Source: Candidatus Nitrosopelagicus sp.
GTDB taxonomy: Archaea > Thermoproteota > Nitrososphaeria > Nitrososphaerales > Nitrosopumilaceae
Assembly (NCBI GenBank): GCA_028345195.1
Contig: JAOMCX010000001.1
Coordinates: forward strand, 73,411 to 105,410
Length of the DNA stretch: 32,000 nt
Reading direction: 5' to 3'
Both the position numbers and the translations under genes were made by a program. Shown here in pieces: positions 2,092 to 17,429 of this stretch (positions within the stretch are counted from its first letter, which is position 1; each line of letters begins with the position of its first letter). Under the pieces are notes generated by a model. That model was given only the letters and a program-made list of their open reading frames with translations. It searched no databases and was not told the DNA's origin.

Positions 2092-3117
2092 TTAATGAGT
2101 TAAAATATACCAGAAAAAATTCAATCCATATCTGATAGCATGAGATTTTTTGTCTGCTTTAGTTTTTGAAATTCCTAGTCTTTTCTTAAATGTGATTGGT
2201 ATCTCAACTATTCTAAGATTATTTTCTATTCCTATCATAGTCATTAAAATTGCAAACAATCCACTATTACTACTAATAATTATTTCATCAGAATTCGGTG
2301 ATGTGAATTTATTGATAATTTTTTCTAGTGCAGTTTTTTTTATACATCTATGCATACAACCAACATCAGTTAATTCTATAATACTCAGATTGAATAATGA
2401 GAAGTATTTCAATTGTAATAATTTGGCAAGAAAATAATTTCCCCATACATGTAAAATACTATTTTGATTTCCTTTTTCAGTTAATACTTGAATCAATCTA
2501 GTACCTACAACCATATCACAATTTTCCATATAGGGAATCATTTTTTTAATGTCAGCACCACTAAAAGTTCCATCACATTCTGTGAAAACAACTAAGTCCG
2601 AATCAGTTTTTATGGATTCTTTCATTCCAACTACACATGAATGTGCAAATCCTTTATTCGAATCTTTAGTAAAAACAGAAACATTACATTTCCTAGCTAT
2701 TTCTACAGTTTTATCAGTACTATGATTGTCAATTATAATTATTTCATTAACAAAATCTTGGTTTTTGTAATCATTAATTACAAATTCAATATTTTTTTCT
2801 TCATTAAAAGTTGGAATAATTACACAAATTTTTGGGTTTTTAATAGGTGTATTAATTAAGTGATATAATTCGGAATCTGTTTTGTAATTTTTTCTAGTTA
2901 AGATGAATATTATAACGCATATCCAATAGCTTAGATCTAAAAGAAGTATCCATTTGAGATATGTAGATAAATAAACATTTTCAACAAACGTATTGGCAAC
3001 AAATAATGTTTGAAATCCATCTATTGCAAAATAGTATAAATTTATTGAAAACCACGATAGATTAATTATTAAAATTATTATAAATGACAAAATAATAGAT
3101 GCAAAAATTTTTCCCAT
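2092..3117 (-). CDS. Family 2 glycosyltransferase (polyprenyl-phosphate sugar synthase-like, DPM1/ArnC type) with an N-terminal membrane anchor
   Basis: 341 aa. Hydrophobic segments lie in residues 1-75. The GT-A core follows: CVIIPTFNEEKNI, IIIDNHSTDKT and the acidic motif TECDGTF. Confidence 0.8.
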   Translation of the reverse strand: MGKIFASIILSFIIILIINLSWFSINLYYFAIDGFQTLFVANTFVENVYLSTYLKWILLLDLSYWICVIIFILTRKNYKTDSELYHLINTPIKNPKICVIIPTFNEEKNIEFVINDYKNQDFVNEIIIIDNHSTDKTVEIARKCNVSVFTKDSNKGFAHSCVVGMKESIKTDSDLVVFTECDGTFSGADIKKMIPYMENCDMVVGTRLIQVLTEKGNQNSILHVWGNYFLAKLLQLKYFSLFNLSIIELTDVGCMHRCIKKTALEKIINKFTSPNSDEIIISSNSGLFAILMTMIGIENNLRIVEIPITFKKRLGISKTKADKKSHAIRYGLNFFWYILTH

Positions 3118-3244
3118 GGTTCATTCAGAATTAAAGGATTTGGTATATCAATAATTCTAATTGTTTATTTTCAGTTAACGATCTAAAAATTACGAAGTTT
3201 ATCAATAGTGTTATTTAGTAAAAAATCATTGAAATCTTAGAACT

Positions 3245-4189
3245 ATGACTAAATTGTCCTTTCGACCAATATTGATTTTAGTTTTGATTATGACTGTTTT
3301 TTATATTTTAATTTCAGTTTATTCAGGTTTTGACGATATTTTAGAAAATTTTTCATCAATAAATCTTGTTTTAATCCCAGTCATAATTGGAATAATTTTT
3401 TTATCTATAGTTATTCGGAGTTATATTCAGAAGTTATTATTAGATGAACTAGAGATAAAATTATCTCTAAAACAAAATCTTTCGCTATTTTTATGTGGGT
3501 TAGCATTAATCATATCACCTGGAGGAACAGGGCAAGTAATAAAATCTTATTTTTTAAAAGAAAAATATGGAATTTCTATTTCTAAAACTGTTCCTATAAC
3601 ACTCTTTGAGAGATACTATGATTTGATTGGTATTTCAATTTTGGTAGGAATAAGTATTTGTGTAGTATTCTCTGTTGAATCTTTTTTAATTTTGATAATT
3701 GCATCAGTGATTATTGGTCTAATTGCCATTGCCATTAGAAAGGAATTATTCTTTAAGAGATTATTATCATTACAACAAAAAATAGTTTTTATAAAAAAAT
3801 TAGAAATTGATGAAAAAGAGTTCTTTTCATCAATAAAGATACTTTGTAAACCCAGAATATCTTCAAAGGTAACAATTCTTACAATTTTAGTAACATTTTG
3901 GGATGGATTTGCAATATTTCTTGGATTTCAAGCATTTCAGAGTAATATAGGATATTTTGAGGCTACACAGTTCTATTATACATCATTAATGATTGGGGTT
4001 ATGTCATTTATTCCAGGGGGTATGGGTATTGTAGAAGGAGGATTTACAATTTTAAGTTCAAGATATTTAGAGATAGCAACAGGAGTTTCAATAATTATAT
4101 TTATTCGTCTAACAACAATTTGGTTTTCAACATTCTTGGGAATATGTGTATCATTTCAAGAATTATTTGGAAAGAATAGAATTAAATGA
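3245..4189 (+). CDS. Flippase-like polytopic membrane protein (LPG-synthase-TM / UPF0104 family)
   Basis: 314 aa and almost entirely hydrophobic helices. Contains ISPGGTGQVIKSY and the family-typical IPGGMGIVEGG loop. Confidence 0.65.
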   Translation: MTKLSFRPILILVLIMTVFYILISVYSGFDDILENFSSINLVLIPVIIGIIFLSIVIRSYIQKLLLDELEIKLSLKQNLSLFLCGLALIISPGGTGQVIKSYFLKEKYGISISKTVPITLFERYYDLIGISILVGISICVVFSVESFLILIIASVIIGLIAIAIRKELFFKRLLSLQQKIVFIKKLEIDEKEFFSSIKILCKPRISSKVTILTILVTFWDGFAIFLGFQAFQSNIGYFEATQFYYTSLMIGVMSFIPGGMGIVEGGFTILSSRYLEIATGVSIIIFIRLTTIWFSTFLGICVSFQELFGKNRIK

Positions 4190-4217
4190 TTTTATTGTAT
4201 ATTGTAAATTCTCTCTC

Positions 4218-6113
4218 CTAATCATCATAGTTTATCTTGTAAACCACTAAATCAATTTTTTCTGAAGCAAAAATTAATTCAAAATTTGCTGGAACATTTG
4301 GATTGCTTGGATCTGATAAAATCCTCAAAAAGTCATGTTGATTATTAATCAAAGCTTCATGTGGTCTAAATACTAGATAATCTGGAATTGGTTGTAACTT
4401 GTTTAATCTATCACCTGGAATACTACTTGTTCCTGAATTTAGTAATTCATGTTCTTTCCAATCCTTTCTAATCAAAAAATTCTCTATCGACTCATTTTCT
4501 TCGCCTTCATTAAATAATGTAAAAAGTAATTTGCTATCTACATATGGTGTCAATAACCAATTATTTGTCATTATATACTTTTTTTCAATATCTGACTCCT
4601 TGGACAAAACTTCTCCAGCTTTTTTGTATTCTTCACCTAAAACATTAATATTATTTCCTTCAATTAGATATAAAATTTCTTTGTTAATGCTTTCAAATGG
4701 AATACCAGAATTATTTGTTCGATAAAGAACATAAGAATAGCCTAAATCAGAAGCGAATAAACCTGCAATAATTACTATTAAAAATATTTGTAATCCTCTT
4801 GTATAGATAAAACGATTGTTCATTTTCCTTATTTTTAAATAGATTTCTGGTATCATTTTCATAAAAAATATTGCAGAAAATATACTAATGGAAATTGAAA
4901 TAATAAAAAATTGCTCACCAGAAAATAATCTTATCACAGACATTGTTAAGAAAAAAATTATTGGAATAATCAGAATTGGTAGAAAGTTCTGTTCTATCTT
5001 TCTAATATTCATCATGACAAATACAAATATGGGAATCAAACAAATTGCTACACCATGAATTGTAATGTCACCAAAAATTAATATCATGATTGTAGTAATA
5101 CATGCGACTGAAATCAAAAATATGAGTTTTTTCCGTGAAAATTCTGTTTTAAAATTATACAATAACCCTCCCAAAAATGGAAATATAGCTACAAATGGAA
5201 TTATTGGACTAATAGATGTATTACCTATAAAATTAAAATTAAATAAATTTCCTGGAATGTTGTAAAACATATTCCAAAAATAATTTTTTAGAAATAGACC
5301 AGGATCTAATAATATCAATTCAACTATTCCATTAGTACCTAAAGACTGTTCCCGAAATTCTGTTGATGCAAATTCTGAACTACTTGCTATATACCATGAA
5401 CTGTTACCGCCTAAAACTGAATCAAACATAATCTCATTGTAGATTAAAACTGGACTAATTATTAGAAAAAATATGGTAATAAATAAAACACTTTGAGATA
5501 TTTTCTTTTTAAAATTATTTCTATAAATAATTATGAATATAATATAACTAAGAAACGGCACTACAAATTGATAGCGAATTGTAAACGCAATTCCTATAAG
5601 AAATCCTGAAAATATAATATCTTTTTTAGTTAAATTTTTTTTTGTTATAAAATATAATGATGCGATAAAAAGAAAGAATGGTAAAATCTCATTTTCTGCT
5701 TGAATTGAAAAAAATAAAAAATATGGATTAAAAACCAAAAATAACTGTCCAACAATTGCAGTCTTATGATCCAGAAAATTTCGAATTATATGATATGTAA
5801 GATAAATTATTGCTGATGAGCAAATTACAGCAATTATTTTTAATAAATTAAATCCATCATTCACTAACTCATCTAAAAGCGCATAAATTACTGGACCACC
5901 AATTCCCGCATTAGGTATTAGTACATTTTCTCCTTCTCCATGTAAAATTTCTTTTCCCATTTCTAAATAATATTGTCCATCGATATCAAATGTCCAATAA
6001 TTATGATTAGCAAGTGCAATGTATAGTGCAAGAACAAAAAATGTTAATGTAATAATTATTGGTATTCTTTGAAAATTCACTGATTCAGAGATAATCAAAT
6101 TATTACCTTTCAT
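4218..6113 (-). CDS. GT-C fold membrane glycosyltransferase (ArnT/PMT, GT39/GT83-like) with a C-terminal soluble domain
   Basis: 631 aa. It has more than 10 hydrophobic helices and an acidic first-loop motif, WTFDIDGQYYLEMGKE. A soluble tail of about 170 aa follows. No WWDYG motif is present, so it is not called AglB. Confidence 0.6.
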   Translation of the reverse strand: MKGNNLIISESVNFQRIPIIITLTFFVLALYIALANHNYWTFDIDGQYYLEMGKEILHGEGENVLIPNAGIGGPVIYALLDELVNDGFNLLKIIAVICSSAIIYLTYHIIRNFLDHKTAIVGQLFLVFNPYFLFFSIQAENEILPFFLFIASLYFITKKNLTKKDIIFSGFLIGIAFTIRYQFVVPFLSYIIFIIIYRNNFKKKISQSVLFITIFFLIISPVLIYNEIMFDSVLGGNSSWYIASSSEFASTEFREQSLGTNGIVELILLDPGLFLKNYFWNMFYNIPGNLFNFNFIGNTSISPIIPFVAIFPFLGGLLYNFKTEFSRKKLIFLISVACITTIMILIFGDITIHGVAICLIPIFVFVMMNIRKIEQNFLPILIIPIIFFLTMSVIRLFSGEQFFIISISISIFSAIFFMKMIPEIYLKIRKMNNRFIYTRGLQIFLIVIIAGLFASDLGYSYVLYRTNNSGIPFESINKEILYLIEGNNINVLGEEYKKAGEVLSKESDIEKKYIMTNNWLLTPYVDSKLLFTLFNEGEENESIENFLIRKDWKEHELLNSGTSSIPGDRLNKLQPIPDYLVFRPHEALINNQHDFLRILSDPSNPNVPANFELIFASEKIDLVVYKINYDD

Positions 6114-6194
6114 CTAAAACTAGCCAATTTTTCACGCATATTTGTCTTAATTAGCTATCGTAAGTACTAAATATCAAAATTTCTTTTTTTATAT

Positions 6195-8324
6195 ATGTCT
6201 AAAGATTTGATTGGAATTTGTGATCTTACACATACTGCAACTGGTTCGTATGCTACTAATCTAATGCCGTATCCTATAGCATCAATTAAATCATATTTGC
6301 TGCATTTTTCTGAATTCAAAAATGATTTTGAAGTAAAAATTTTCAAAGATCCCAACAAATTCATTGAATGGTATTTATCTAATAAACCAAAAATTATTGG
6401 ATTTTCTAACTATGTATGGAATAAGGAATTATCATGTGAATTGGCACGTGAAATTAAATCTAAAAATCCTGAAACATTGATAATATTTGGTGGTCCTAAT
6501 TTTCCTTTAGATGATCCAAGTAGAGAAAAATGGTTAAAGGAGCATCCTGAAGTTGATCTATACATTATTGGAGAAGCAGAAGAATCATTTTCCAAAATTA
6601 TTGATATCTGGCAAAAAACACATGATCTAAACAAAATTAAAACAACTGATGTGATCGGATGTTTTGCAATTGTAAATGACAAGTTATTCAAATCTAGTGA
6701 GTTTAGTCCTAGAATTCCTCAACTAGATTCAATCCCATCACCATATTTAGAAGGTTATCTAGACGAATTTCTCTCTGATTCTAAATTATCTCCATTACTT
6801 GAATCAAATAGAGGTTGTCCATTCACTTGCACATTTTGTGTTGATGGTATTAAAGATCGTTCACGTGTTTATTATAAAGAAGTGTCTAGATTTGAAAAAG
6901 AACTAGAGTATATTGCAACTCATTATGAGGGTAAAGTACTGACATTAGCTGATCTCAATTTTGGAATGTATAATCAAGACATAGAAATTTCAAACGCAAT
7001 AGCGAACATAAAAGAGAAATTTAATTATCCATATTATATCCAAGTTTCTACAGGAAAAAACAACAAACCTAAGGTTCTAAAATGTGCGGAAATTTTGAAG
7101 GGAAGCATGAGTTTAGCTGCATCGGTTCAATCATTAGATAAAGAAGTTCTAACAAAAATTAAACGAAAAAATATTCAGGAAGATCAATTACTTGATATGA
7201 CAAAAGCAGGAAATAAAATGAGTGCAAATACATATTCTGAAGTAATTTTAGCTTTGCCTGGTGATTCTAAGGAAAAACATATGGATACTGTTTTGAAATT
7301 AGCTGATTCTGATATGAATTTAATTTCAATGTATCAATGTATGATTTTAGAAGGTTCTGAAATGGGCTCGAAATCTTCAAGAGATCAATGGAAAATGGGA
7401 ACAAAATTTAGAGTTCTTCCAAAATGTTATGGTGTATACAATTTCGATGGAAAAGAAATTCTTTGTGCCGAAATTGAAGAAATTTGTGTTATGACTGAGA
7501 GTTTACCAATTGAAGATTATTATGAATGTAGATTGTTTGCATTAACTGAAGGATTATTTTATCAGGATAGAGTTTTAGTTGAAATGTATCGATTTTTAGA
7601 AAATTTTGGAATCAAGGCTTCCGATGTACTAAGGCAATTACATAAAAACAAAGAAAAGTTCTCAGAAAAACTATTAAAATTATATTCTTCTTTTGATAAC
7701 GATACGAGAACTGAACTTTGGGATTCTAAAGATGAATTAAAGGAATTCATAAAATCAGATAGAACTGTAATTGATAGATACTATAAAGGTGAATTGGGAA
7801 AAAATGTTTTATTTAGATATAGAGCAATTGCAGCCTTAGAGTTATCCGACAGCATTCATGATGATGTATTCAAAATTATTGAAGAAATGTTAAAAATAAA
7901 GAATAATCAGGCATATTTGCAGTATAAGGATTATCTAAACGAGCTAAAAGAATTTAGTAAATTAAGAAAAAGAAATGTATTTGATTACGAACAACAATAT
8001 GAATCTAAATTCAATTATGATTTTAAAACTCTGATGGAAACAGATTTTGAAATTTTACCTAAAAAATTAGAAAAATCAATTACGGTTAGATTTTTTACAA
8101 ATGATGAAAAAAAGTTAATGATTAAAGAACAAATAGCTGAAAGAGGTTCTGATGTGGATGGAATTGGTAAGATCTTATCAAGAACACTTGGGTCAATGCT
8201 TTTGAGAAATGTAGAATTTGAGAATATTGCATATAAACAAAGTGAAAAGGAAAAAATGGTAAAAGAAATTGAAATTCTTGAAAAAGATGTAGGAATAAAC
8301 CAATCACCTGGTGAATTTGTTTAA
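6195..8324 (+). CDS. B12-binding-domain radical SAM enzyme (class B-like) with a long uncharacterised C-terminal extension
   Basis: 709 aa. The N-terminal Rossmann-like region reads KIIGFSNYVWN...LIIFGGPNFP. The canonical cluster motif is SNRGCPFTCTFCVDG (CX3CX2C). About 300 further helical, charged residues have no motif I recognise. Confidence 0.8.
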   Translation: MSKDLIGICDLTHTATGSYATNLMPYPIASIKSYLLHFSEFKNDFEVKIFKDPNKFIEWYLSNKPKIIGFSNYVWNKELSCELAREIKSKNPETLIIFGGPNFPLDDPSREKWLKEHPEVDLYIIGEAEESFSKIIDIWQKTHDLNKIKTTDVIGCFAIVNDKLFKSSEFSPRIPQLDSIPSPYLEGYLDEFLSDSKLSPLLESNRGCPFTCTFCVDGIKDRSRVYYKEVSRFEKELEYIATHYEGKVLTLADLNFGMYNQDIEISNAIANIKEKFNYPYYIQVSTGKNNKPKVLKCAEILKGSMSLAASVQSLDKEVLTKIKRKNIQEDQLLDMTKAGNKMSANTYSEVILALPGDSKEKHMDTVLKLADSDMNLISMYQCMILEGSEMGSKSSRDQWKMGTKFRVLPKCYGVYNFDGKEILCAEIEEICVMTESLPIEDYYECRLFALTEGLFYQDRVLVEMYRFLENFGIKASDVLRQLHKNKEKFSEKLLKLYSSFDNDTRTELWDSKDELKEFIKSDRTVIDRYYKGELGKNVLFRYRAIAALELSDSIHDDVFKIIEEMLKIKNNQAYLQYKDYLNELKEFSKLRKRNVFDYEQQYESKFNYDFKTLMETDFEILPKKLEKSITVRFFTNDEKKLMIKEQIAERGSDVDGIGKILSRTLGSMLLRNVEFENIAYKQSEKEKMVKEIEILEKDVGINQSPGEFV

Positions 8325-8840
8325 ATGAAAAACTCACTAAAAATAAAATGTAAAAAAATTAAATTAGTTGTAACTGATGTTGACGGAGTACTAACTGATG
8401 GTGGTCGTTATTTCTCCAGTACTGGTGAGTTACTAAAAAAATTTCATGTACGAGATGGTATGGCTGTCAATCTACTATTGAGGCATAATATTAAAACAAT
8501 AATTTTAACAAAGGAGACATCTAAAATCACTAAGTCATGGGGAAAATCAATGAATATAACAAAAGTATATTCTGGTGCAAAAATTAAAGAAGAAAAATTA
8601 AAAATCATATGTGATTCTTTTGACATAATTCCAACAGAAATAGCATTTATTGGTGATGATGTCAATGATCTTAATCTACTAAAAAAAGTTGGAATATCTG
8701 CGTCACCATTTGATGGAATATCTCAAGTAAAAAAAACAGTAGACTACATATGTAAAAACCCTGGAGGAAATGGTGCATTTAGAGAATTAGCTGACTTAAT
8801 TCTCCAATCAAAATTTCCTAAGAAAACAAATTGGTATTAA
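8325..8840 (+). CDS. HAD phosphatase of the YrbI/KdsC type (ulosonate-phosphate phosphatase-like)
   Basis: 171 aa with LVVTDVDGVLTDGGRYF (HAD motif I in YrbI style) and FIGDDVNDL (motif IV). The ATG follows the upstream TAA directly. Confidence 0.8.
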   Translation: MKNSLKIKCKKIKLVVTDVDGVLTDGGRYFSSTGELLKKFHVRDGMAVNLLLRHNIKTIILTKETSKITKSWGKSMNITKVYSGAKIKEEKLKIICDSFDIIPTEIAFIGDDVNDLNLLKKVGISASPFDGISQVKKTVDYICKNPGGNGAFRELADLILQSKFPKKTNWY

Positions 8841-8873
8841 GTTATATTAATTAGCAATTTTTTAAAAGTAATA

Positions 8874-9707
8874 ATGGTCTTTATTGTTGCTGAAGTTGGT
8901 ATAAATCATAATGGAAATATTGATACTGCTAAAAAATTAATCGATGTTGCAGTTTCAGCTGGTTGTGATGCAGTAAAACTTCAGAAACGCTCAGTTGAAA
9001 AAGTTTATACAAAAAAACTCTTAGATTCTCCACGTGATAGCCCATGGGGAAAAACTCAACGAGCACAAAAAAACGGATTAGAATTTTCAATATCACAATA
9101 TAAAATAATTGATAGATACTGTAAATCAAGAAAAATTCCATGGTATGTATCATGCTGGGATATTGATAGCCAAATATCTATGAGAAAATTCAAAACAAAA
9201 TATAACAAAGTTGCATCTGCCATGTTAATTCATACAAAACTTTTGGAAACAATTGCAAAAGAAAAAAAACATACTTTCATTTCCACTGGAATGAGTACAA
9301 TGAAAGAAATTGAAAATGCAGTAAAAATTTTTAAAAAATTCAAATGTTCTTTTGAATTAATGCATTCACATAGTGCATATCCGATGGATGTATCTGAAGC
9401 AAATTTAAAAATAATTCAAACTTTAAAAAAACAATTCAAATGTAATGTAGGGTATAGTGGTCATGAAAGTTCATCTTACATTGTAAGTCTTTCTGCTGTA
9501 TTGTTAGGTGCAACATCTATTGAACGACACATAACACTTGATCGTTCAATGTATGGAAGTGATCAAGCAGCTTCGCTTGAGCCTGATGGATTACATAGAC
9601 TAGTTAGAGATATTCGAACTGTTGATCAAATATTGGGTAATGGGAAAAAACGTATTTGGGATTCAGAGCTTCCAGCAAAAAAGAAATTAAGAGAGATTCT
9701 TAACTAA
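8874..9707 (+). CDS. NeuB-type PEP-condensing ulosonic acid synthase, short form lacking the C-terminal SAF/antifreeze-like domain
   Basis: 277 aa with FIVAEVGINHNGNIDTAKKLIDVAVSAGCDAVKLQKR, GYSGHE and ERHITLD. The protein ends soon after the TIM-barrel region. Confidence 0.8.
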   Translation: MVFIVAEVGINHNGNIDTAKKLIDVAVSAGCDAVKLQKRSVEKVYTKKLLDSPRDSPWGKTQRAQKNGLEFSISQYKIIDRYCKSRKIPWYVSCWDIDSQISMRKFKTKYNKVASAMLIHTKLLETIAKEKKHTFISTGMSTMKEIENAVKIFKKFKCSFELMHSHSAYPMDVSEANLKIIQTLKKQFKCNVGYSGHESSSYIVSLSAVLLGATSIERHITLDRSMYGSDQAASLEPDGLHRLVRDIRTVDQILGNGKKRIWDSELPAKKKLREILN

Positions 9708-9716
9708 TATTATAAA

Positions 9717-10277
9717 ATGAAAAATTTAATTGAAGAATCAATCACATCTCGAATAGATATTGTTCAGAATTCTACTTCTCTTTCAAGTGAAATTGAAGAA
9801 TCTATTCAAAAAATAATAGAATGTTTAAAAAATCAAAAAAAAATTATTCTTTTTGGAAATGGAGGTAGTGCAGCTGATGCTCAACATATTGCTGCTGAAT
9901 TTATTGGTAGATTCAAAAAAGAAAGAAATTCTTTACCTGCAGTTTCATTAACAACCGATACCTCAATAATAACTTCTATTTCTAACGATTATTCTTTTGA
10001 TAATATTTTTAGTCGTCAATGTGAAAGTTTAGTTAATTCTGGGGATGTTGTAATTGCAATATCTACAAGCGGTAATTCCAAAAATATTGAATTAGGAATT
10101 AAAGCATCAAAACAAAATGGTGCATTAATTATTGGATTGTTAGGTAATAATGGTGGAATGATTAGAGAACTTGTTGACATACCTATTATTATAAACTCTA
10201 CAGATACTGCAAAAATCCAGGAAATGCATCGAATTATTTATCATATAATCTGCGATTTCGTTGAAAAAAATCTATAA
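9717..10277 (+). CDS. gmhA: Phosphoheptose isomerase (SIS domain, GmhA type)
   Basis: 186 aa with FGNGGSAADAQHIAAEFIGRF, TSISNDYSF and AISTSGNSKN. Confidence 0.8.
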   Translation: MKNLIEESITSRIDIVQNSTSLSSEIEESIQKIIECLKNQKKIILFGNGGSAADAQHIAAEFIGRFKKERNSLPAVSLTTDTSIITSISNDYSFDNIFSRQCESLVNSGDVVIAISTSGNSKNIELGIKASKQNGALIIGLLGNNGGMIRELVDIPIIINSTDTAKIQEMHRIIYHIICDFVEKNL

Positions 10278-10293
10278 CCGTCTCTCAAACAAA

Positions 10294-11301
10294 TTATAAT
10301 CTATTTTTAATATAATCTATTGCGTCAACTGGTGATGGATCTATCTTAGATAAGACTGCAAGGTAAATAGAAGTATAATCTAATAAATAAATTAAACATA
10401 CAAGTTTTGAAATTATATTTCCATCAACTGAAAATACTTCTGCATATTCTATGTTCTTACTTTTGAAATACTCTTTAATAATTTGCCATCTCTCTTTTGT
10501 TTTAATATAATCATTTGCTCCTTGAAGTAAAATTGGTTTGAAATTATTGTTATTTTCCCATGTTGAAATTGAATTATGTGATGCTTCTATTACATCTTCT
10601 ATACTAGTATGAATTTTTGAATTTTCTTGTAATGAATTTTTGAATCTAATTGCAGCAGCCTTAAGTCCATCAGGGTAGTAGATTAAGGGATTTGAATCAA
10701 TATTTTTTGCTAAACTTAAAGATGGATTTCCTTCATTAAGGTTGTCTGAATTAATTTTTTTTTGTAATTCTTCCATTTTTTCAAGTGATTCAATGACTTC
10801 TGATTTTTGAATTGGTAATGCATCTCCAAGTATACTGAGGATTGAATATAGAAATATACCAAATGATGCTCTTGGTGAATGATTCATTTTAATATTATAG
10901 TGTAGAATTGAATTTTCCATACATTTCTTTTCCATAATTCCTCCTGATGAAATTGCAATAAATTTTGCATTTGATTCAGATTTATAATCTAAAATGGCTA
11001 ACGTCTCTTTTGTATTGCCTGATATGCTTATTGCAATCACTAATGTTTTGTCGTCAACCGTCTTTGGCAATAAATATCCTTTAACAGTTGAAACATGGAA
11101 ATTTTCTCTAGACAATATTGCTGCAATAATATCTCCAATTGCACCTGATCCTCCCATTCCTGCTAAAACCACATGATCTATATTATCAAATCTTATCTTT
11201 GAAAATTCTTTCTCGTAAGCATCTTTAGCTAATATTGCCCATTTGTCATAAACTTTATACATTTTTTGTGGATCAAATTTTTGAATATCTTGTATATTCA
11301 T
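10294..11301 (-). CDS. Bifunctional phosphoglucose/phosphomannose isomerase (archaeal PGI/PMI, double SIS)
   Basis: 335 aa with LAGMGGSGAIGD and AISISGNTKET. Size and layout match archaeal PGI/PMI enzymes. Confidence 0.75.
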   Translation of the reverse strand: MNIQDIQKFDPQKMYKVYDKWAILAKDAYEKEFSKIRFDNIDHVVLAGMGGSGAIGDIIAAILSRENFHVSTVKGYLLPKTVDDKTLVIAISISGNTKETLAILDYKSESNAKFIAISSGGIMEKKCMENSILHYNIKMNHSPRASFGIFLYSILSILGDALPIQKSEVIESLEKMEELQKKINSDNLNEGNPSLSLAKNIDSNPLIYYPDGLKAAAIRFKNSLQENSKIHTSIEDVIEASHNSISTWENNNNFKPILLQGANDYIKTKERWQIIKEYFKSKNIEYAEVFSVDGNIISKLVCLIYLLDYTSIYLAVLSKIDPSPVDAIDYIKNRL

Positions 11302-11394
11302 ATTGCAACTAAAAACTACATCTAATAAAACACTAAGGTATGATAGATACTTTATGTCTAAACAAATAATAAATTCTTGATTTAAAAAAATATT

Positions 11395-12429
11395 ATGACA
11401 TTAAAAACAATAGAATGGAAAGATAATTCTGTAGTAATGATTGATCAGACAAAATTACCTAATATTCTTGAATATGCTACTTATACTGATTTTAATCAGG
11501 TTGCAGACGCAATTAGGACATTAGTTATTAGAGGTGCACCTGCTATAGGAGTGTCTGGCGCATTTGGACTTGCTTTAGCATCATTACAAAGTGATGCTGC
11601 AAACAAAGATGAACTCATATCATATATGGAAAATGCTAAAAAAATTCTATTTGAAACAAGACCTACAGCAGTGAATCTTGGATGGGGTCTCAATAAAATT
11701 ATGGAAGTTGCAAATAATGGAAATACTGTAGATGAAATTAGAAAAAATGTTATTGATTATGCCAAAAAAATGGCAGACAATGATGTAAAAATCAATATGG
11801 CAATGGGGAAAAATGGTTCAGAATTATTTGATAATGATGACACTATAATGACTCATTGTAATGCAGGTGCATTAGCTACTGTTGGTTATGGAACAGCTTT
11901 GGGAGTAATTCGTGCAACAAAAGACAGTGGAAAAAATGTTAAAGTTATAGCTACTGAAACTCGTCCAATCCAACAAGGTTCAAGATTAACCGCTTTTGAA
12001 TTAAAACACGATGGAATTGATGTTAGTCTAATACCTGACACTGCAGTTGGTTATTCAATGGCAAATGGTTTAGTAGACAAAATAATTGTTGGCGCAGATC
12101 GAATTCTAAGAACTGGCCATGTTTATAATAAAATTGGAACATATCAGGTAGCAACTATGGCAAATCAACATAAAATTCCATTCTATGTTGCAGCACCACT
12201 TTCAACATTTGATATGAAGAGTAATCCTGAAGATGTAATCATTGAACAACGAAAAGGTTCTGAGGTTACTGGAATTGGAGATAAAAAAACTGCACCTGAT
12301 GGTATTGATGTAATTAATCCTGCATTTGATATGACTCCTCCTGAATTGATTGATGGAATAATTACTGAGAAAGGTATTGCAAAAGCACCATTTGAAGAAT
12401 CTATAAAAAAATTATTCCAAGCTAATTAA
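11395..12429 (+). CDS. aIF-2B-I family sugar-phosphate isomerase (methylthioribose-1-P isomerase MtnA or ribose-1,5-bisphosphate isomerase)
   Basis: 344 aa with IRGAPAIGV, THCNAGALAT, ETRPIQQGSRLTA and VGADRI. Confidence 0.8.
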   Translation: MTLKTIEWKDNSVVMIDQTKLPNILEYATYTDFNQVADAIRTLVIRGAPAIGVSGAFGLALASLQSDAANKDELISYMENAKKILFETRPTAVNLGWGLNKIMEVANNGNTVDEIRKNVIDYAKKMADNDVKINMAMGKNGSELFDNDDTIMTHCNAGALATVGYGTALGVIRATKDSGKNVKVIATETRPIQQGSRLTAFELKHDGIDVSLIPDTAVGYSMANGLVDKIIVGADRILRTGHVYNKIGTYQVATMANQHKIPFYVAAPLSTFDMKSNPEDVIIEQRKGSEVTGIGDKKTAPDGIDVINPAFDMTPPELIDGIITEKGIAKAPFEESIKKLFQAN

Positions 12430-12450
12430 CATCAAGTTTTTATTCATTTC

Positions 12451-13107
12451 ATGTGGAATTTTCTCATGAGTACTGTCAGTATAGAAAATGTACGTGATTC
12501 ACTGAAAAAATGTATGGATCCTGAAGTTCCATTAAGTATTGTAGATATGGGTTTAATCTACGGAATTGATGTAACTGAAAATAATGATGTAAATATCAAA
12601 ATGACTATGACAACAAAAGGTTGTCCTTTACATGAAACAATGGTTGACGATGTTAAAAGATATGCAAAAAAAGTTTCTGGTGTAAATAATGTCGATGTAG
12701 AAATTGTATGGGATCCTCCATGGACAATGGATAAAATGTCAGATGAAGCAAAAGCCATGATGAAAACAATGGGTTCTCAAAATACTCCTGCTCCTATTAA
12801 TTATGAAACCGCTGTACCACAAGGTGTTGGCAACTTAGTAAAACAAGAAGATGGTTCTCTAGTTCTTGCAAATGAGCATGAACAAGGATTTATGGTAAAT
12901 CAAGCAATCATAGACTTTTGGAAATCTTGTAATGGACAAAGAAAAGTTACTGAATTGGTGGATCTATTTGCTCAACAAACTGGATTACAAAGAACACAAG
13001 TTGAAAAAGAGGTAATGCAATTATTAAAACAACTTCATGAAGGTGGATTACTAGTTATTCCAAACCAAAACGATGCTCCAAATGTTGAATTTAAAAAATC
13101 AAGTTAA
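12451..13107 (+). CDS. Fusion protein: N-terminal DUF59 (SufT/MIP18-like Fe-S assembly domain) plus C-terminal PqqD-like peptide-binding (RRE) domain
   Basis: The DUF59 part shows DPEVPLSIVDMGLIYGIDV, TTKGCPLHETM and VEIVWDPPWT. The C-terminal part shows FMVNQAIIDFWKSCNGQRKVTELVDLFAQQTGLQRTQVEKEVMQLLKQLHEGGLLV, a PqqD-type pattern. The start could be ATG 12451 or ATG 12466. Confidence 0.65.
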   Translation: MWNFLMSTVSIENVRDSLKKCMDPEVPLSIVDMGLIYGIDVTENNDVNIKMTMTTKGCPLHETMVDDVKRYAKKVSGVNNVDVEIVWDPPWTMDKMSDEAKAMMKTMGSQNTPAPINYETAVPQGVGNLVKQEDGSLVLANEHEQGFMVNQAIIDFWKSCNGQRKVTELVDLFAQQTGLQRTQVEKEVMQLLKQLHEGGLLVIPNQNDAPNVEFKKSS

Positions 13108-13343
13108 ATTTCTTTAATCTCTGTTATCTTTGCTAAAACCGAATCCATTTTTACAATAGCACGTTTTTCTGCCCAACCTAATGCAACATACCAATCCCCT
13201 GCATCATCATCATACTTTGTTTCTAATGTCTCAATTTTTTCAGATTCTGTCTTGTATTCTTTTAAAATTCCTGACATTGCAAGTGATATTGCATCTTTTT
13301 CTGTTTTCAATCGTCTATCCATTAAACCGATACCAGGACTCAT
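13104..13343 (-). CDS. Hypothetical small protein (79 aa, charged/helical)
   Basis: ATG-started ORF convergent with the previous gene and overlapping it by 4 nt. I recognise no motif. Confidence 0.4.
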   Translation of the reverse strand: MSPGIGLMDRRLKTEKDAISLAMSGILKEYKTESEKIETLETKYDDDAGDWYVALGWAEKRAIVKMDSVLAKITEIKEI

Positions 13344-13382
13344 GTTATGATCTGAAAATTATCTCTAATATACTTGATTATT

Positions 13383-13389
13383 AAAAAAA
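13383..13389 (-). terminator. Oligo-T tract directly after tRNA-Arg
   Basis: The plus strand has A7, so the minus strand reads T7 directly after the acceptor 3' strand. This fits the oligo-T style of archaeal termination. The first T may be the discriminator base. Confidence 0.35.
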
Positions 13390-13463
13390 GGGCCCGATGG
13401 GATTCGAACCCATGGCCTGGTGGTCCGAAGCCACCCGCTCTATCCAGGCTGAGCTACGGGTCC
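13389..13463 (-). tRNA. tRNA-Arg (anticodon TCG)
   Basis: Hand-folded cloverleaf: GGACCCG TA GCTC AGCCTGGATA GAGC G GGTGG CTTCGGA CCACC AGGCC ATGGG TTCGAAT CCCAT CGGGCCC (T). No intron and no encoded CCA. Confidence 0.9.
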
Positions 13464-13487
13464 AAAAAAATAAGCATTTAACTGGTC

Positions 13488-13495
13488 TAAATATC
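13488..13495 (-). promoter_or_regulatory. TATA-like box upstream of tRNA-Arg
   Basis: The minus strand reads GATATTTA and begins about 32 nt upstream of the tRNA 5' end. The spacing matches the other promoters in this window. Confidence 0.35.
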
Positions 13496-13505
13496 TGTCT
13501 CAGTT

Positions 13506-14678
13506 ATGAAAATATCAAAAAAAGTCGCAGGAGTGGAATATGCAATTAGAGATATTGTTTCTGCAGCACGTGAAATAGAGTTACAGGGGAAAACAGTTGA
13601 TTATCTGAACATAGGTGATCCTGTGCAATCAGGATTTCAACCACCACAAAATGTCAAACAAGCCATGATTAACGCAATAAATAATGGAAATAATTTCTAT
13701 ACTCGTTCTGAAGGTTTAACTGAATTAACTGACGCAATTGCAAAAAAAGAAAATGCAAAAGGTCTGTCCATACCCTCTGAAAATATTCTTGTAACAAATG
13801 GTGTTTCTGAAGGTTTGGATATGGTTATCTCTTCTATAGTTGAAGAAGGTGATGAAGTATTACTTCCCGGTCCATATTATCCTCCATATGCTTCATACGT
13901 TAGATTACACGGAGGAATTCCAATTGAATTCTCAGTTGATTTGAATTCATCATCTCCTGATATCGATGACATCAAAAGTAAGATTACTTCAAAAACTGTT
14001 GCAATTTGTCTAATCAGTCCAAATAATCCTACGGGTTTGGTATTCAATGAAAATGCTTTAAGACAAATTGTTGATGTAGCAAATGAAAATAATCTGTATA
14101 TCATCTGTGATGAAATTTACGATCAAATAGTTTTTGATGAAAAATTTACTGGTATTGGAAAAGTTGCTGGTGACTCACCTGTAATTGTTCTCAATGGCTT
14201 TTCAAAAGTTCATTTAATGTCTGGGTGGCGAATTGGATATATTGCATTTAACAATTCACCACATCTTGATAATCTTAGAGAAAATTTACCAAAACTTGCT
14301 AGAGTGAGAATTTCAACAAATCTTCCTGTACAATATGCTGCTCTAGAATCTTTAACTGGCCCTCAAGACTATATTCCAAAATTTGTTTCTGAATTAAAAA
14401 CACATAGAGATTATGTCATAAAACGACTAAACGAAATGAATGGTATTTCATGTTCAAATCCCAAAGGTGCATTTTACGCATTTCCAAAAATTGAACAAAA
14501 TAAATTTAATTCTGATAAAGAATTTGTTCTAGAATTGTTGAGACAAAAAGGTGTACTCACAGTTCATGGTTCTGGTTTTGGTGAACAATATGGCAGTGGC
14601 CATTTTAGAATTGTTTATCTTCCAAAAATGGAAATATTGGAATCAGCTATGAACAAAATTGAGGATTTTGTTCGTTAA
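13506..14678 (+). CDS. Class I/II PLP-dependent aminotransferase (aspartate/alanine aminotransferase type)
   Basis: 390 aa with SPNNPTG, CDEIYD and the PLP-lysine context GFSKVHLMSGWRIGY. Confidence 0.85.
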   Translation: MKISKKVAGVEYAIRDIVSAAREIELQGKTVDYLNIGDPVQSGFQPPQNVKQAMINAINNGNNFYTRSEGLTELTDAIAKKENAKGLSIPSENILVTNGVSEGLDMVISSIVEEGDEVLLPGPYYPPYASYVRLHGGIPIEFSVDLNSSSPDIDDIKSKITSKTVAICLISPNNPTGLVFNENALRQIVDVANENNLYIICDEIYDQIVFDEKFTGIGKVAGDSPVIVLNGFSKVHLMSGWRIGYIAFNNSPHLDNLRENLPKLARVRISTNLPVQYAALESLTGPQDYIPKFVSELKTHRDYVIKRLNEMNGISCSNPKGAFYAFPKIEQNKFNSDKEFVLELLRQKGVLTVHGSGFGEQYGSGHFRIVYLPKMEILESAMNKIEDFVR

Positions 14679-15076
14679 TATTTCCAATTAGAAAATTCTT
14701 TAGGTAAAATCTCAATTATACAATCTGTATCCTCTAGTAATTCTTTGGCAGATTTATTTTCTAACGATTTAAAATATCGTAAAAGAATTTTTTTTGCAAT
14801 TCTGTTGACTGTTTTCTTTTCTTTTAATAATTTTGCAATTCCTTTACCCATTACACCAAAAATATCTGGTGCATTAACCCCGACATCAACACAAAAACTA
14901 ACTTTTCTATGTTTTTTGATATTCTTTGCTTTCTGAGTTTTTGTATTTGTTCCGACATAGATCTTACCTGCACTATACAAATACCAAACAGGAACGATAT
15001 GTGGGGAATTTTTTTCATCAATGGTTGCCAAATGAAGAATTTTTTCTTTTTTTAAAAATTCAGTTTGCTTTGACAT
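14675..15076 (-). CDS. PPOX-family flavin/deazaflavin-binding protein (pyridoxamine 5'-phosphate oxidase-like split barrel)
   Basis: Contains KILHLATIDEKNSPHIVPVWYLY and KAKNIKKHRKVSF. I place the start at ATG 15076 (MSKQTEF...) rather than the TTG at 15100 given in the track. Confidence 0.65.
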   Translation of the reverse strand: MSKQTEFLKKEKILHLATIDEKNSPHIVPVWYLYSAGKIYVGTNTKTQKAKNIKKHRKVSFCVDVGVNAPDIFGVMGKGIAKLLKEKKTVNRIAKKILLRYFKSLENKSAKELLEDTDCIIEILPKEFSNWKY

Positions 15077-15296
15077 TTGGTTTTCTGTACCCCCAACCAA
15101 TTAAAATTAATCCAAAAGCAATCATTCCAACTGAAATTTTCTCATTACTGATGTCTGGTCCCAATAAAAAATCGAGTGCAAATTCTGGACTCCACAAAAT
15201 CATATTTCTAACTAAAACAATTGATGCCATTATGATGAACAAAACTCCCATTGCAGAGAACCAATTTCTTCCTCTACGTGAATATTCACTACTCAT
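15060..15296 (-). CDS. Small two-helix membrane protein (78 aa), hypothetical
   Basis: ATG start and two hydrophobic stretches. The 17-nt overlap ATGTCAAAGCAAACTGA with the downstream PPOX gene suggests co-translation. Confidence 0.4.
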   Translation of the reverse strand: MSSEYSRRGRNWFSAMGVLFIIMASIVLVRNMILWSPEFALDFLLGPDISNEKISVGMIAFGLILIGWGYRKPNVKAN

Positions 15297-15320
15297 GATA
15301 AAACATTGTTCTTAATCGTT

Positions 15321-15992
15321 TTAAATTATTTTAATTCCAGGATTTTTCATCTTGTTTCTTATCATTGCATTAAGTAACAATGGAGTTGACATCTCAACAA
15401 GATAAGCTAATGCACCTGGTCCTAAATAAATTGGTCTCAAACCTTCAATTTCATTAATTAATCCATTTACTACTTCCACTGATTCTTTACTATCTCCTGC
15501 AACGAATATGTCATAATCTAATTTCAAAGTTGGATTAACAAGTTTTTTCTCAGAAATTACATGAAATGCTGAAACAAGTTTTGATTTATCTTTCATATGC
15601 TTTTCAACTGTTTGATGTGAAAATGGTTTATTTTCTTTTATTGCAACACACTCAAAACCTGTATCTGTTTTTGTCATAGGAACAATTGGTGATACAACAA
15701 CGCAGTCATCACTAATGTGAGGCAATAATTCTGAACAAATTGAATCAATATTCTCATATGGAATTGATAAGACTAAAACATCTGATTCTTTAGCAACTGT
15801 TGTGTTATCTGTACCTGTAATATCCCCATTAATTTTTTCATATGCTTCTTTAGTTAATTGTGTATATTCTTGAGCTGATGTATTTGCACGTTCAGCATCT
15901 CTTGAACCGATCAAAACATTATGATCTTTGCACCATCTGATTGCAAAACCTTTTCCCATTCCGCCAGTTCCACCAATAATTCCAACTTTCAT
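15321..15992 (-). CDS. npdG: NADPH-dependent F420 reductase (NpdG/Fno type)
   Basis: 223 aa with the N-terminal dinucleotide fold MKVGIIGGTGGMGKG. Length and layout match F420:NADP oxidoreductases. Confidence 0.75.
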   Translation of the reverse strand: MKVGIIGGTGGMGKGFAIRWCKDHNVLIGSRDAERANTSAQEYTQLTKEAYEKINGDITGTDNTTVAKESDVLVLSIPYENIDSICSELLPHISDDCVVVSPIVPMTKTDTGFECVAIKENKPFSHQTVEKHMKDKSKLVSAFHVISEKKLVNPTLKLDYDIFVAGDSKESVEVVNGLINEIEGLRPIYLGPGALAYLVEMSTPLLLNAMIRNKMKNPGIKII

Positions 15993-16049
15993 GAATGCGC
16001 TCTGCCAATCTTATTATTATCTCTATTGAAGACAAATTCGTAATACAAT

Positions 16050-16667
16050 ATGATAATCTTCCTTAGACATGGGCAAGCTGAAAATAATACTAAAAAAATT
16101 TTAGCGGGTAGAACTCCTGGAATTAATCTTACTGAAGAAGGAAAAAAACAGGCTGAACAGGCTGGTGAGATGATTAAATCTCTTAATATCTCTGCAATTT
16201 ACTCTAGTCCAATTGATAGGGCAATGCAAACTGCAGAAATTGTTGGAAAACATTGTGATGTAAAACCAATATCAGATGATCGATTAATTGAATTGGATAT
16301 GGGAAAGTTTACGATGGTTCCATATGACGAAATCTTCAAAAAACATGGTAACGTATTCTTGAAATTCTATGAAGGCAGTTTGGAAATTAGTCATAATGGC
16401 GTTGAATCATTTTCAGAAGTACAAAAAAGAGTTTTTGATATTGTTGACTTTGTCAAAAATAACCATAAAGGAGAAAACGTTGTTCTAGTTACTCATATGG
16501 ATCCAATTAAAGCAATGATCGGAAAAGTCCTCTCTCTAAAATCTGAGATTCTTTTTCAATTAATTGTCGCAAATGCTTCTCTCAATGTTTTCAAATATGA
16601 CGATCAAAACTTTTACCTCTCTTCGATCAACTCTATGAACTCTTCACGTTTTCATGAGACTTTTTAA
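16050..16667 (+). CDS. Histidine phosphatase superfamily protein (phosphoglycerate mutase-like)
   Basis: 205 aa. The catalytic RHG motif lies at the N-terminus (IIFLRHGQAENN) and a second His lies in VLVTHMDPI. Confidence 0.75.
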   Translation: MIIFLRHGQAENNTKKILAGRTPGINLTEEGKKQAEQAGEMIKSLNISAIYSSPIDRAMQTAEIVGKHCDVKPISDDRLIELDMGKFTMVPYDEIFKKHGNVFLKFYEGSLEISHNGVESFSEVQKRVFDIVDFVKNNHKGENVVLVTHMDPIKAMIGKVLSLKSEILFQLIVANASLNVFKYDDQNFYLSSINSMNSSRFHETF

Positions 16668-16683
16668 GATAAATCCTCCAAAC

Positions 16684-16691
16684 TTTTAAAT
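16684..16691 (+). promoter_or_regulatory. TATA box of the oxidase operon
   Basis: AAACTTTTAAATAG. A predicted transcription start near 16713 would leave a short leader. That leader carries an SD-like CAGGTAA 5 nt before the TTG at 16727. Confidence 0.4.
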
Positions 16692-16726
16692 AGAAATTTT
16701 CGACCACGCGTAATTAACAGGTAAAA

Positions 16727-16990
16727 TTGAAAGGAATAATTGGTATAGGTGCAATGTTGGGGCTTTTAGTAATTCTTCCTTCCATTCAGTATGTTTTAGC
16801 AGCCGGTGATTCTGCTGGTGAATATCTTGATAGACGTGTAGTTATTTGGGGATTATTTTATAGATTAATGATTGTCGCATTTACAGTAGGAACTGTAGTT
16901 TCTGGTCTTATAGTATGGCTAGTTTTGAGATTTAGAGAGTCAAATCCAAAAGCAACACCAACATCTTACGAGGCGTCGGGTTCGTGGTAA
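16727..16990 (+). CDS. Small membrane protein, possibly the detached first transmembrane helix of oxidase subunit II
   Basis: 87 aa from TTG 16727, or 78 aa from ATG 16754. It has a signal-like helix plus a second helix, VVIWGLFYRLMIVAFTVGTVVSGLIVWLVLRF. Its stop lies 1 nt before the coxB ATG. Confidence 0.5.
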   Translation: MKGIIGIGAMLGLLVILPSIQYVLAAGDSAGEYLDRRVVIWGLFYRLMIVAFTVGTVVSGLIVWLVLRFRESNPKATPTSYEASGSW

Positions 16991-16991
16991 A

Positions 16992-17423
16992 ATGAGCGGA
17001 CACTCTACTTGGCCAGAATGGGTTTACGTTGGCGTTGTAATCGCATTACTTTGTTATGTAGGTGCAGAAGCTTGGAATATTGAAAGAATTATTGAGCATG
17101 TTCCAGAAGATGCAGAAATTATCAAAGTTACTGGTCAACAATGGATATGGACCTTTGAACATGAAGATGGAACTAAAGAGATAGGAGAACTACATGTCGA
17201 AAAAGGAAAAGCGTACAAGTTTGAGATAACGTCGAAAGATGTTATACATTCATTTAACATTCATGATTATGTTGTTTTGTTGGACGCAGTACCTGGAAGA
17301 GTTAACACGGTTTGGTTTTCACCAACAGATGTTGGAGAATTTGATATTCAATGTAGAGAATACTGTGGATTAATTCATTACAACATGCGTGGAACACTTA
17401 TTGTAGAGGATAAAGGAGCCTGA
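16992..17423 (+). CDS. coxB: Haem-copper oxidase subunit II (single TM helix plus CuA cupredoxin domain)
   Basis: 143 aa with QWIWTFEH, HSFNI and the CuA site CREYCGLIHYNM (C-x3-C-x3-H-x2-M). Confidence 0.85.
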   Translation: MSGHSTWPEWVYVGVVIALLCYVGAEAWNIERIIEHVPEDAEIIKVTGQQWIWTFEHEDGTKEIGELHVEKGKAYKFEITSKDVIHSFNIHDYVVLLDAVPGRVNTVWFSPTDVGEFDIQCREYCGLIHYNMRGTLIVEDKGA

Positions 17424-17429
17424 TTTGAT

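Follow-up and report, generated by a model that had tools for sequence, protein, structure and literature searches.

The subject of this report is a block of four forward-strand genes (6195-10277) in a 32-kb stretch of DNA from Candidatus Nitrosopelagicus sp. (contig JAOMCX010000001.1). We refer to the whole stretch of 32,000 nucleotides as the window; its G+C content is ~30%, and its gene content was established by Pfam scans of all open reading frames (ORFs) of at least 100 residues. The first gene of the block (6195-8324) codes for a B12-binding radical SAM protein of 709 residues (PF04055, PF02310) related to the KedN5-like C-methyltransferase family. It is followed by the genes for a 171-residue HAD phosphatase of the KdsC/YrbI family (8325-8840; PF08282, PF00702, TIGR01670), which we propose to act on an ulosonate phosphate, for a 277-residue NANS-like synthase of the NeuB family that lacks a SAF domain (8874-9707; PF03102), proposed to condense phosphoenolpyruvate (PEP) with an aldose phosphate, and for a 186-residue GmhA-type sedoheptulose-7-phosphate isomerase (9717-10277; SIS_2, similar to 1tk9), the proposed supplier of that aldose phosphate. 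A bifunctional phosphoglucose/phosphomannose isomerase (PGI/PMI) of 335 residues is encoded convergently on the reverse strand (10294-11301); it contains bact-PGI_C and SIS domains and is matched by PGI/PMI models.

The four genes are tightly packed. As read directly from the sequence, the stop codon of the radical-SAM gene at 8324 abuts the ATG of the phosphatase gene at 8325 (gap of 0), and the next two intergenic gaps measure 33 nt (phosphatase to synthase) and 9 nt (synthase to isomerase). A preliminary description of this DNA had reported the phosphatase, synthase, isomerase and PGI/PMI, and had pointed out the close packing of the first three (hereafter the triad); all of these features were recovered by Pfam and NCBIfam searches and by direct reading. 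The radical-SAM gene, which both abuts the phosphatase gene and is conserved together with the triad, had been overlooked. Upstream of the block lies a divergent intergenic region (6114-6194, assigned to no strand), at which synteny with N. brevis CN25 breaks off on the left side. It is AT-rich, and TTTTTTTATATATG extends into the start codon of the radical-SAM gene. This region probably serves as the promoter of the four-gene block, and we propose that 6195-10277 is one transcription unit, located on the border of the variable island of surface-glycan genes in Ca. Nitrosopelagicus. The evidence presented below makes it very likely that the genes work together as a single module, producing a 3-deoxy-ulosonic acid by way of a sugar phosphate.

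The synthase matches the NeuB domain over the full length of the profile (PF03102: 221.5 bits, protein residues 22-259, profile positions 1-241 of 241). Beyond this domain the protein continues for another 18 residues, with no match to the SAF domain (PF08666), in agreement with the preliminary description. Its score against the NeuB equivalog model TIGR03569 (234.7 bits) is below the cutoff of 399.65, and only positions 1-276 of the 329 in that profile are covered. An identical protein (100%) is present in a Candidatus Nitrosopelagicus metagenome-assembled genome (MAG), the CN25 counterpart is 95% identical, and identity across Nitrosopumilaceae is 75-80%. A HMMER search of the full library revealed many further SAF-less relatives of 270-300 residues at 40-53% identity. 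Eight residues of the synthase (E7, K35, Q37, K112, H197, E217, H219 and D230) align with E25, K53, Q55, K129, H215, E234, H236 and D247 of NmNeuB, respectively, and are invariant in the alignment of the SAF-less clade. Among them are what we take, from the paper on structure 1XUZ, to be the catalytic Glu, the PEP-binding Lys and the metal-ligand His of NmNeuB.

The clade has a simple signature. All 75 of its aligned members contain the motifs K(F/L)QKR, PRxSP(W/F)GxT, GYSGHE and LDRxM, the first three of which read KLQKR, PRDSPWGKT and GYSGHE in the window synthase. Human NANS (reference sequence NP_061819.2) is 37% identical to this synthase (179 bits), and the scores of solved bacterial enzymes of the NeuB family are smaller (6ncs, 133 bits; NmNeuB, 75 bits). 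The patterns KxQK, (S/P)WGxT and GYSGHE are common to the clade and human NANS, where they appear as KFQK, SWGKT and GYSGHE, and are absent from NmNeuB, PseI, SpsE and 6ncs. Instead, NmNeuB, PseI and SpsE, as well as the SAF-type NeuB proteins encoded in the same loci as clade members, have Q(T/M)(Y/H/F) and G(L/F)SDH(T/S), with scores of at most 75-133 bits. NmNeuB, PseI and SpsE act on free sugars; human NANS joins PEP to N-acetylmannosamine-6-phosphate (ManNAc-6-P) or mannose-6-phosphate (Man-6-P). Because the clade motifs are shared with NANS and missing from the free-sugar enzymes, we conclude that the window protein is a predicted ulosonate-phosphate synthase of the sugar-phosphate type. 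As for the acceptor sugar, we infer its identity from gene linkage.

Linkage was analyzed in 80 genome loci, a non-random sample representing the best of at least 600 matches in a scan seeded with the clade alignment; ORFs in these loci were called with a simple in-house script. Two of the loci are archaeal, and the others come from Lachnospiraceae, SAR11, Mariprofundaceae, Alteromonas, Leptospirales, Acidobacteriota, Chloroflexota (Chloroflexus), Actinomycetota, Planctomycetota, Gastranaerophilales and additional taxa. A KdsC-like HAD phosphatase is encoded within 0.7 kb of the synthase in 44 of the 80 loci. Thirty loci have a cytidine monophosphate (CMP)-transferase of the CTP_transf_3 family no more than 2.5 kb away, a number that rises to 37 at 10 kb (locus L015 has this family as well). 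GmhA is found within the same distances in 21 and 28, and an acetolactate-synthase-like enzyme dependent on thiamine diphosphate (ThDP) within 2.5 kb in 18. Genomes of several megabases have one or two gmhA genes, and by our rough estimate chance would place gmhA within 20 kb of the synthase in less than ~1% of loci.

GmhA is mostly the immediate same-strand neighbor of the synthase or of the phosphatase. Collinear clusters run GmhA-HAD-NeuB-CMP-transferase (L026), GmhA-HAD-NeuB-TIM barrel-CMP-transferase-aminotransferase and onward (L019, Mariprofundaceae) and GmhA-HAD-NeuB-CMP-transferase-aminotransferase-TIM barrel-SDR-SDR (L042). In seven loci, mostly of Lachnospiraceae (including L016, L017, L023, L027 and L088), a KdsC-type HAD and GmhA are fused in a single ORF. 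For one of these fusions (L016, 12056-13132) both halves were confirmed by Pfam and NCBIfam (TIGR01670, 86 bits; TIGR00441, 166 bits). Other fusions join CMP-transferase to HAD, HAD to NeuB, or all three as CMP-transferase-HAD-NeuB. A direct NeuB-GmhA fusion was also considered, and none occurs among 20 multi-domain clade members, in which the partners are only HAD, CMP-transferase, SAF, AP_endonuc_2, methyltransferase and GT29. No heptose kinase or GmhB is present among the recurrent neighbor families that were annotated, several smaller families having been left unannotated; NTP_transferase recurs in seven loci. Together, the motifs shared with NANS and the adjacency or fusion to KdsC-type phosphatases and CMP-transferases across phyla support the phosphorylated-intermediate ulosonic acid module that the preliminary description had suggested.

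Several lineages have variations of their own. In Lachnospiraceae the gene downstream of the HAD-GmhA fusion codes for an acetolactate-synthase-like ThDP enzyme, and NTP_transferase often lies ahead of the fusion. A recurrent set of putative tailoring enzymes comprises an AP_endonuc_2 TIM-barrel protein, two SDRs, a GFO/Idh/MocA oxidoreductase, a CMAS-like methyltransferase and either a class III aminotransferase with a glyoxalase-like protein or a class IV aminotransferase (for example, L019 9479-16276, L042 11593-15006 and L001 14871-18221), suggesting that condensation is followed by oxidation and amination. In Acidobacteriota, Planctomycetota and Verrucomicrobiota (L059, L061, L063, L065-L067, L070, L078, L082, L084, L086, L093 and L010) the genes after the synthase encode HAD, an acetolactate-synthase-like ThDP enzyme and Methyltransf_21, with no CMP-transferase nearby; decarboxylation or carboligation of the sugar acid is possible there. 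Loci of the Gastranaerophilales/Melainabacteria type (L052, L069, L071, L074, L077, L079, L083, L087, L089 and L092) have the synthase and HAD genes right after fliO, beside a histidine kinase and an aspartokinase, with neither GmhA nor CMP-transferase within 10 kb.

The linked isomerase carries the motifs of established GmhA enzymes. The closest solved relative of the window protein is C. jejuni GmhA (1tk9, E = 1.5e-50), and H57, E61, R65, the TTDTS motif, D91, STSGxS (S116-S121), Q168, E169, H171 and H176 are all identical to their equivalents in 1tk9 and 2xbl. The GNGGS loop, the His/Glu/Gln/His set, Arg65, TTDTS, Asp91 and STSGxS are likewise kept in nearly all NeuB-linked GmhA proteins; the His/Glu/Gln/His set provides the zinc and catalytic residues, and STSGxS is the phosphate loop. 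Scores against the curated models are below the cutoffs (TIGR00441, 187.6 versus 209.45 bits; PRK13936, 203.6 versus 276 bits). Judging by these motifs, nothing suggests an altered substrate, and we know of no GmhA with phosphomannose isomerase activity. The presence of a dedicated GmhA in the clusters of archaea, Gram-positive Lachnospiraceae, Actinomycetota and Chloroflexus fits a pattern in which it would supply a precursor that the cell otherwise lacks.

The phosphatase passes the cutoff of the KdsC/YrbI subfamily model (TIGR01670: 134.9 bits versus 106.95) and contains the catalytic DxDG motif within TDVDGVLTDG. It is roughly equidistant from two more specific equivalogs, scoring 138.9 bits against the model of the phosphatase acting on the 9-phosphate of ketodeoxynononic acid (KDN-9-P phosphatase, NF058599; cutoff 180) and 137.2 bits against that of KdsC (cutoff 208). 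PDB entries for KdsC and KDN-9-P phosphatase (KDN9PP) are related to it with E-values of 1e-29 to 1e-24. We also considered whether it might be GmhB, and rejected this candidate, as the KdsC/YrbI model is passed and no GmhB model matches. For a closer view of the active site, 38 NeuB-linked HAD proteins were aligned to the KDN-9-P phosphatase BT1713 (PDB 3e81 and the E56A and K67A mutants). The KDN9PP-type Glu, which occupies the position of BT1713 Glu56 and is replaced by Arg in KdsC, is present in 34 of the 38, including the window protein. The position of Lys67 is Lys or Arg in 33; the window protein has Ser here, with Lys one residue before. Only seven have Arg at the position of Arg64, a residue that reportedly binds the ulosonate carboxylate (Daughtry et al. 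2013), and the window protein has Trp. The same Trp is found in all four Nitrosopumilaceae proteins aligned (residues ~60-72 in the window protein).

Comparison with other Nitrosopumilaceae indicates that the triad is a unit. The blastn alignment to the CN25 chromosome covers window positions 6157-19723 at 88% nucleotide identity. Within it the radical SAM-HAD-NeuB-GmhA block keeps its location at 92-96% identity, and in both genomes PGI/PMI and the core genes beyond it come next; the DNA before 6157 is different throughout. In Nitrosarchaeum limnium and two other Nitrosopumilaceae, HAD, NeuB and GmhA are again adjacent, with different flanks. The occurrence of this adjacency in N. limnium among other flanking genes, in CN25 and in many bacterial phyla argues that the association is not due to chance. 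Upstream of the block CN25 encodes, on the strand of the block, a KpsC/KpsS-like Capsule_synth protein (31 bits) and a methyltransferase, and divergently an SpsF-like CTP_transf_3 protein (5 kb from the block), a DegT aminotransferase and a second NeuB of 352 residues. A PIG-L deacetylase, a formyltransferase and two acetyltransferases are also part of this CN25 island (L178, CP007026.1 167777-188610). The glycan island thus varies between close strains, the window having transketolase, GT2, flippase-like and PMT_2 genes in the place of these CN25 genes. A number of proteins in public MAGs labeled 'Chloroflexi bacterium' or 'Nitrospina sp.' (P0002, P0003, P0322 and P0328) are 95-98% identical to those of window genes; these labels probably reflect mis-binned thaumarchaeal contigs.

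The radical-SAM protein is 96% identical and syntenic in CN25. It scores 176 bits against the KedN5 family model NF033712, below the cutoff of 700. Its homologs are encoded near CMP-transferase, NeuB or GmhA in two SAR11 loci (L037 and L038), and the surroundings of the synthase, in SAR11 and elsewhere, repeatedly contain homologs or other enzymes of the B12-radical-SAM type. The enzyme probably modifies the sugar acid, for example by C-methylation, although this role is conjectural.

Linkage and fusion of the synthase to HAD, CMP-transferase and GmhA, together with the intact motifs of GmhA, make the module a mirror of the KdsD/KdsA/KdsC/KdsB series. As acceptor we favor D-glycero-D-manno-heptose-7-phosphate, which would yield a ten-carbon acid, with about even confidence in this particular sugar. 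In the pathway so envisaged, GmhA, as its intact motifs suggest, would convert sedoheptulose-7-phosphate into D-glycero-D-manno-heptose-7-phosphate, the SAF-less NANS-like synthase would condense the latter with PEP to 3-deoxy-dec-2-ulosonate 10-phosphate, and the KdsC-type HAD would remove the phosphate. The free acid would then be CMP-activated by a CTP_transf_3 enzyme encoded elsewhere and transferred onto a surface glycan, the radical-SAM enzyme modifying the sugar, possibly by C-methylation. The order of steps may differ. Considering the missing Arg64, the HAD-GmhA fusions and SAR11 loci that have GmhA and NeuB without HAD, the phosphatase might act before the synthase, on heptose-7-phosphate, and the free heptose might then be condensed to the same product. 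The ten-carbon option raised in the preliminary description has accordingly gained ground, in that GmhA proves to be recurrent, fused to HAD and intact in its active-site motifs, but it remains unproven.

Several observations weigh against a heptose acceptor or against the module as drawn. The chain length of the substrate is not readable from the synthase sequence. None of the three core proteins reaches the equivalog cutoff of its nearest curated model. A CMP-transferase was found neither in the window nor, among the best 120 matches to the CN25 enzyme, on the 188,682-bp source contig of the window. The linkage counts come from the selected best of at least 600 matches, and even there about two-thirds of the loci have no GmhA within 10 kb, so that part of the clade at least may use Man-6-P. 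In Nonomuraea and Mucilaginibacter the synthase occurs in fused versions, and actinomycetes related to Nonomuraea make Kdn polymers. The top NCBIfam match of the window phosphatase is the KDN-9-P phosphatase model and its KDN9PP-type Glu is in place, while the Arg expected to contact the ulosonate carboxylate is not.

Some of these points suggest a KDN pathway, in which the synthase would join Man-6-P and PEP to KDN-9-P, the HAD would be a KDN-9-P phosphatase, and Man-6-P would come from PGI/PMI or from the GmhA homolog acting on fructose-6-phosphate. Besides the 138.9-bit model match, the Glu shared by 34 of the 38 linked phosphatases and the lack of a nearby GmhA in most clade loci, this explanation draws on the synthase motifs held in common with human NANS, for which a Km for Man-6-P is listed, and on the characterized Kdn-9-P synthases of B. 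thetaiotaomicron and Prymnesium, which take Man-6-P as substrate, with a KdsC-family phosphatase acting next (PMC6200933, human NANS in Table 2). In addition, PGI/PMI is adjacent to the triad in Nitrosopelagicus. Yet this adjacency is not kept beyond the genus, the phosphatase is under the KDN9PP cutoff with the equivalents of Arg64 and Lys67 changed, and GmhA, whose substrate-binding motifs are those of true sedoheptulose-7-phosphate isomerases, would be left without a role despite its collinearity and fusion in several phyla. We regard KDN as a possible but rather unlikely product of the window genes. Less probable again is that the GmhA homolog acts on another ketose phosphate, or that the ulosonic acid is transformed beyond a simple nine- or ten-carbon acid, through radical-SAM methylation here and ThDP-dependent chemistry in other lineages. 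The placement of the B12-radical-SAM gene directly against the HAD gene, the acetolactate-synthase-like ThDP enzymes that follow NeuB-HAD in ~18 loci, the recurrence of AP_endonuc_2, SDR, GFO/Idh/MocA and class III/IV aminotransferase proteins in the clusters and the sub-cutoff scores of all three core proteins would fit such a scheme. Against it stand the canonical GmhA motifs, the lack of an acetolactate-synthase-like ThDP gene in the window and the linkage to CMP-transferase (30-37 loci), an indication that the pathway of many lineages ends with a CMP-activated ulosonic acid. Finally, GmhA could belong to a nucleotide-heptose route and NeuB/HAD to an independent nonulosonic acid pathway, their adjacency reflecting merely a shared glycan island. 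The block does lie at the edge of a variable island, and islands mix unrelated sugar pathways, as illustrated by the second SAF-type NeuB and DegT in both L026 and CN25. Nevertheless, the triad stays intact while its flanks change, GmhA is typically the immediate same-strand neighbor of NeuB or HAD and is fused to HAD in some genomes, and both the window and the annotated neighbor families are free of heptose kinase, GmhB and heptose nucleotidyltransferase; we consider independent functions very unlikely. In the window itself, the scans detected no CTP_transf_3, PfkB or GHMP heptose kinase, GmhB or NTP_transferase; as the preliminary description had noted, neither heptose-nucleotide partners nor a CMP-transferase are encoded there.

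Two neighbors that the preliminary description had associated with the triad do not belong to it. PGI/PMI is indeed a convergent neighbor, but we rejected it as a pathway member, since it adjoins the triad only in Nitrosopelagicus; the triad has other neighbors and no PGI/PMI in Nitrosarchaeum limnium and two other Nitrosopumilaceae, which identifies PGI/PMI as a core gene at the island boundary. Since it is a core gene, Man-6-P would need no dedicated isomerase here, a further point in favor of the heptose reading. The PGI/PMI gene together with the 5' part of an mtnA-like gene (10290-11900) forms a sharply bounded segment with 59-78% nucleotide identity to CN25, compared with 90-95% in the flanks, and at the protein level PGI/PMI is 54% identical to its CN25 counterpart versus 90-98% for its neighbors. 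Such a pattern would fit an allele acquired through recombination at the boundary of the island.

The upstream transketolase likewise exists, but as a split transketolase-like pair (348-1178 and 1175-2083; 348-2083 overall). It was rejected as the supplier of sedoheptulose-7-phosphate, as it never occurs with NeuB or HAD in metagenome contigs and its scores are far below transketolase cutoffs. Its co-occurrence in such contigs with formyltransferase, GT2, flippase-like and PMT_2 genes marks it as a member of another gene set. In the window this second glycan module (13-6113) consists of the C-terminal end of a sugar N-formyltransferase (13-351), the transketolase-like pair, a GT2 glycosyltransferase similar to AglJ/ArnC (2092-3117, reverse strand), a flippase-like LPG_synthase_TM protein (3245-4189) and a PMT_2 glycosyltransferase of the GT-C type (4218-6113, reverse strand). 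The set travels without the NeuB triad in the metagenome contigs L094, L095, L099, L103, L105 and L106. By analogy, it resembles an Arn-type route in which a formylated sugar would be placed on a lipid carrier, flipped and then transferred. Housekeeping genes occupy the window beyond 11301. Among the genes on this side, a protein of 218 residues (12451-13107), conserved in CN25, joins FeS_assembly_P (MIP18-like) and PqqD-like domains.

We found no published description of the module in the literature searched. The searched papers name no ten-carbon 3-deoxy-ulosonic acid and give no structure or pathway for one, nor do they link GmhA to nonulosonic acid synthesis or to ammonia-oxidizing archaea. 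In current annotation the genes are labeled only 'N-acetylneuraminate synthase family', 'HAD hydrolase' and 'SIS domain', and for a cultured carrier (Azospirillum thermophilum, on a plasmid) the PGAP labels are likewise generic family names only. The module probably builds an acidic surface sugar, and its carriers include ammonia-oxidizing archaea, SAR11, gut Lachnospiraceae, Acidobacteriota and others. If the acceptor is the heptose phosphate, this would be a pathway of the Kdo/KDN type (Kdo, ketodeoxyoctonic acid) with a seven-carbon sugar phosphate as its starting point and an acidic sugar of ten carbons as its product, and it would provide a genetic explanation for 'higher-carbon ulosonic acids' so far known only as mass-spectrometric signals. 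Nitrosopumilaceae and SAR11 are very abundant lineages of marine plankton. We put forward, tentatively and with somewhat less than even confidence, that the module is the missing route to such 'higher-carbon' ten-carbon 3-deoxy-ulosonic acids, tailored further in this archaeon by the B12-radical-SAM enzyme and in other carriers by SDR, TIM-barrel and aminotransferase enzymes, and that these acids are a widespread class of ocean sugars as yet chemically undescribed. Even if the product were KDN, a large SAF-less clade of NANS-like sugar-phosphate synthases would be defined by a simple motif signature, and 'sialic acid synthase' annotations in archaea would be corrected.

Among known systems, the Kdo pathway (KdsD, KdsA, KdsC and KdsB) offers the closest parallel in logic: a SIS-fold isomerase, condensation with PEP, a KdsC-family HAD and CMP activation, in the same order. 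Here, however, the synthase belongs to the NeuB family (PF03102) and not to the KdsA/DAHP-synthase family, the isomerase is of the GmhA type (SIS_2) and not KdsD, the proposed sugar has seven carbons and not five, and the CMP-transferase would be encoded outside the window. The KDN pathway of B. thetaiotaomicron (BT1714/BT1713) and Prymnesium parvum likewise pairs a PEP:aldose-6-phosphate synthase with a KdsC-family phosphatase, and the KDN9PP-type Glu of the window phosphatase and the CMP-transferase-HAD fusions of its relatives add to the resemblance. The differences are the inclusion of GmhA in our module and a phosphatase that is below the NF058599 cutoff and devoid of Arg64 and Lys67 equivalents. 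Vertebrate NANS, a synthase of Neu5Ac-9-P (the 9-phosphate of N-acetylneuraminic acid) and KDN-9-P, shares 37% identity over the TIM barrel, the motifs KFQK, SWGKT, GYSGHE and ERHITLD and the logic of a phosphorylated intermediate with a phosphatase acting next. Unlike NANS, the synthase described here has no C-terminal AFP/SAF domain, has Arg as the next residue after KxQK (KxQKR) and a PRxSPWG lid motif, and is partnered by a phosphatase of the KdsC type. With nucleotide-heptose pathways (GmhA, HldE/HddA, GmhB and HddC) the module has the first enzyme in common, including its conserved catalytic, zinc and phosphate motifs; it differs in that kinase, GmhB and heptose nucleotidyltransferase are absent from the window and the annotated neighbors, and in that GmhA is linked or fused to a KdsC-type HAD and a NeuB-family synthase. 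Lastly, CMP-activated ten-carbon alpha-keto acids have been detected by MS3 mass spectrometry in Magnetospirillum gryphiswaldense, with no biosynthetic genes assigned (bioRxiv 10.64898/2026.04.20.719630). A search with a clade member from Azospirillum gave no Magnetospirillum protein among its 120 best homologs. With their two N-acetyl groups and one O-acetyl group, in the manner of legionaminic and pseudaminic acids (Leg/Pse), the Magnetospirillum compounds differ from the acid proposed here; they resemble it in being CMP-linked alpha-keto sugar acids with a backbone of more than nine carbons.

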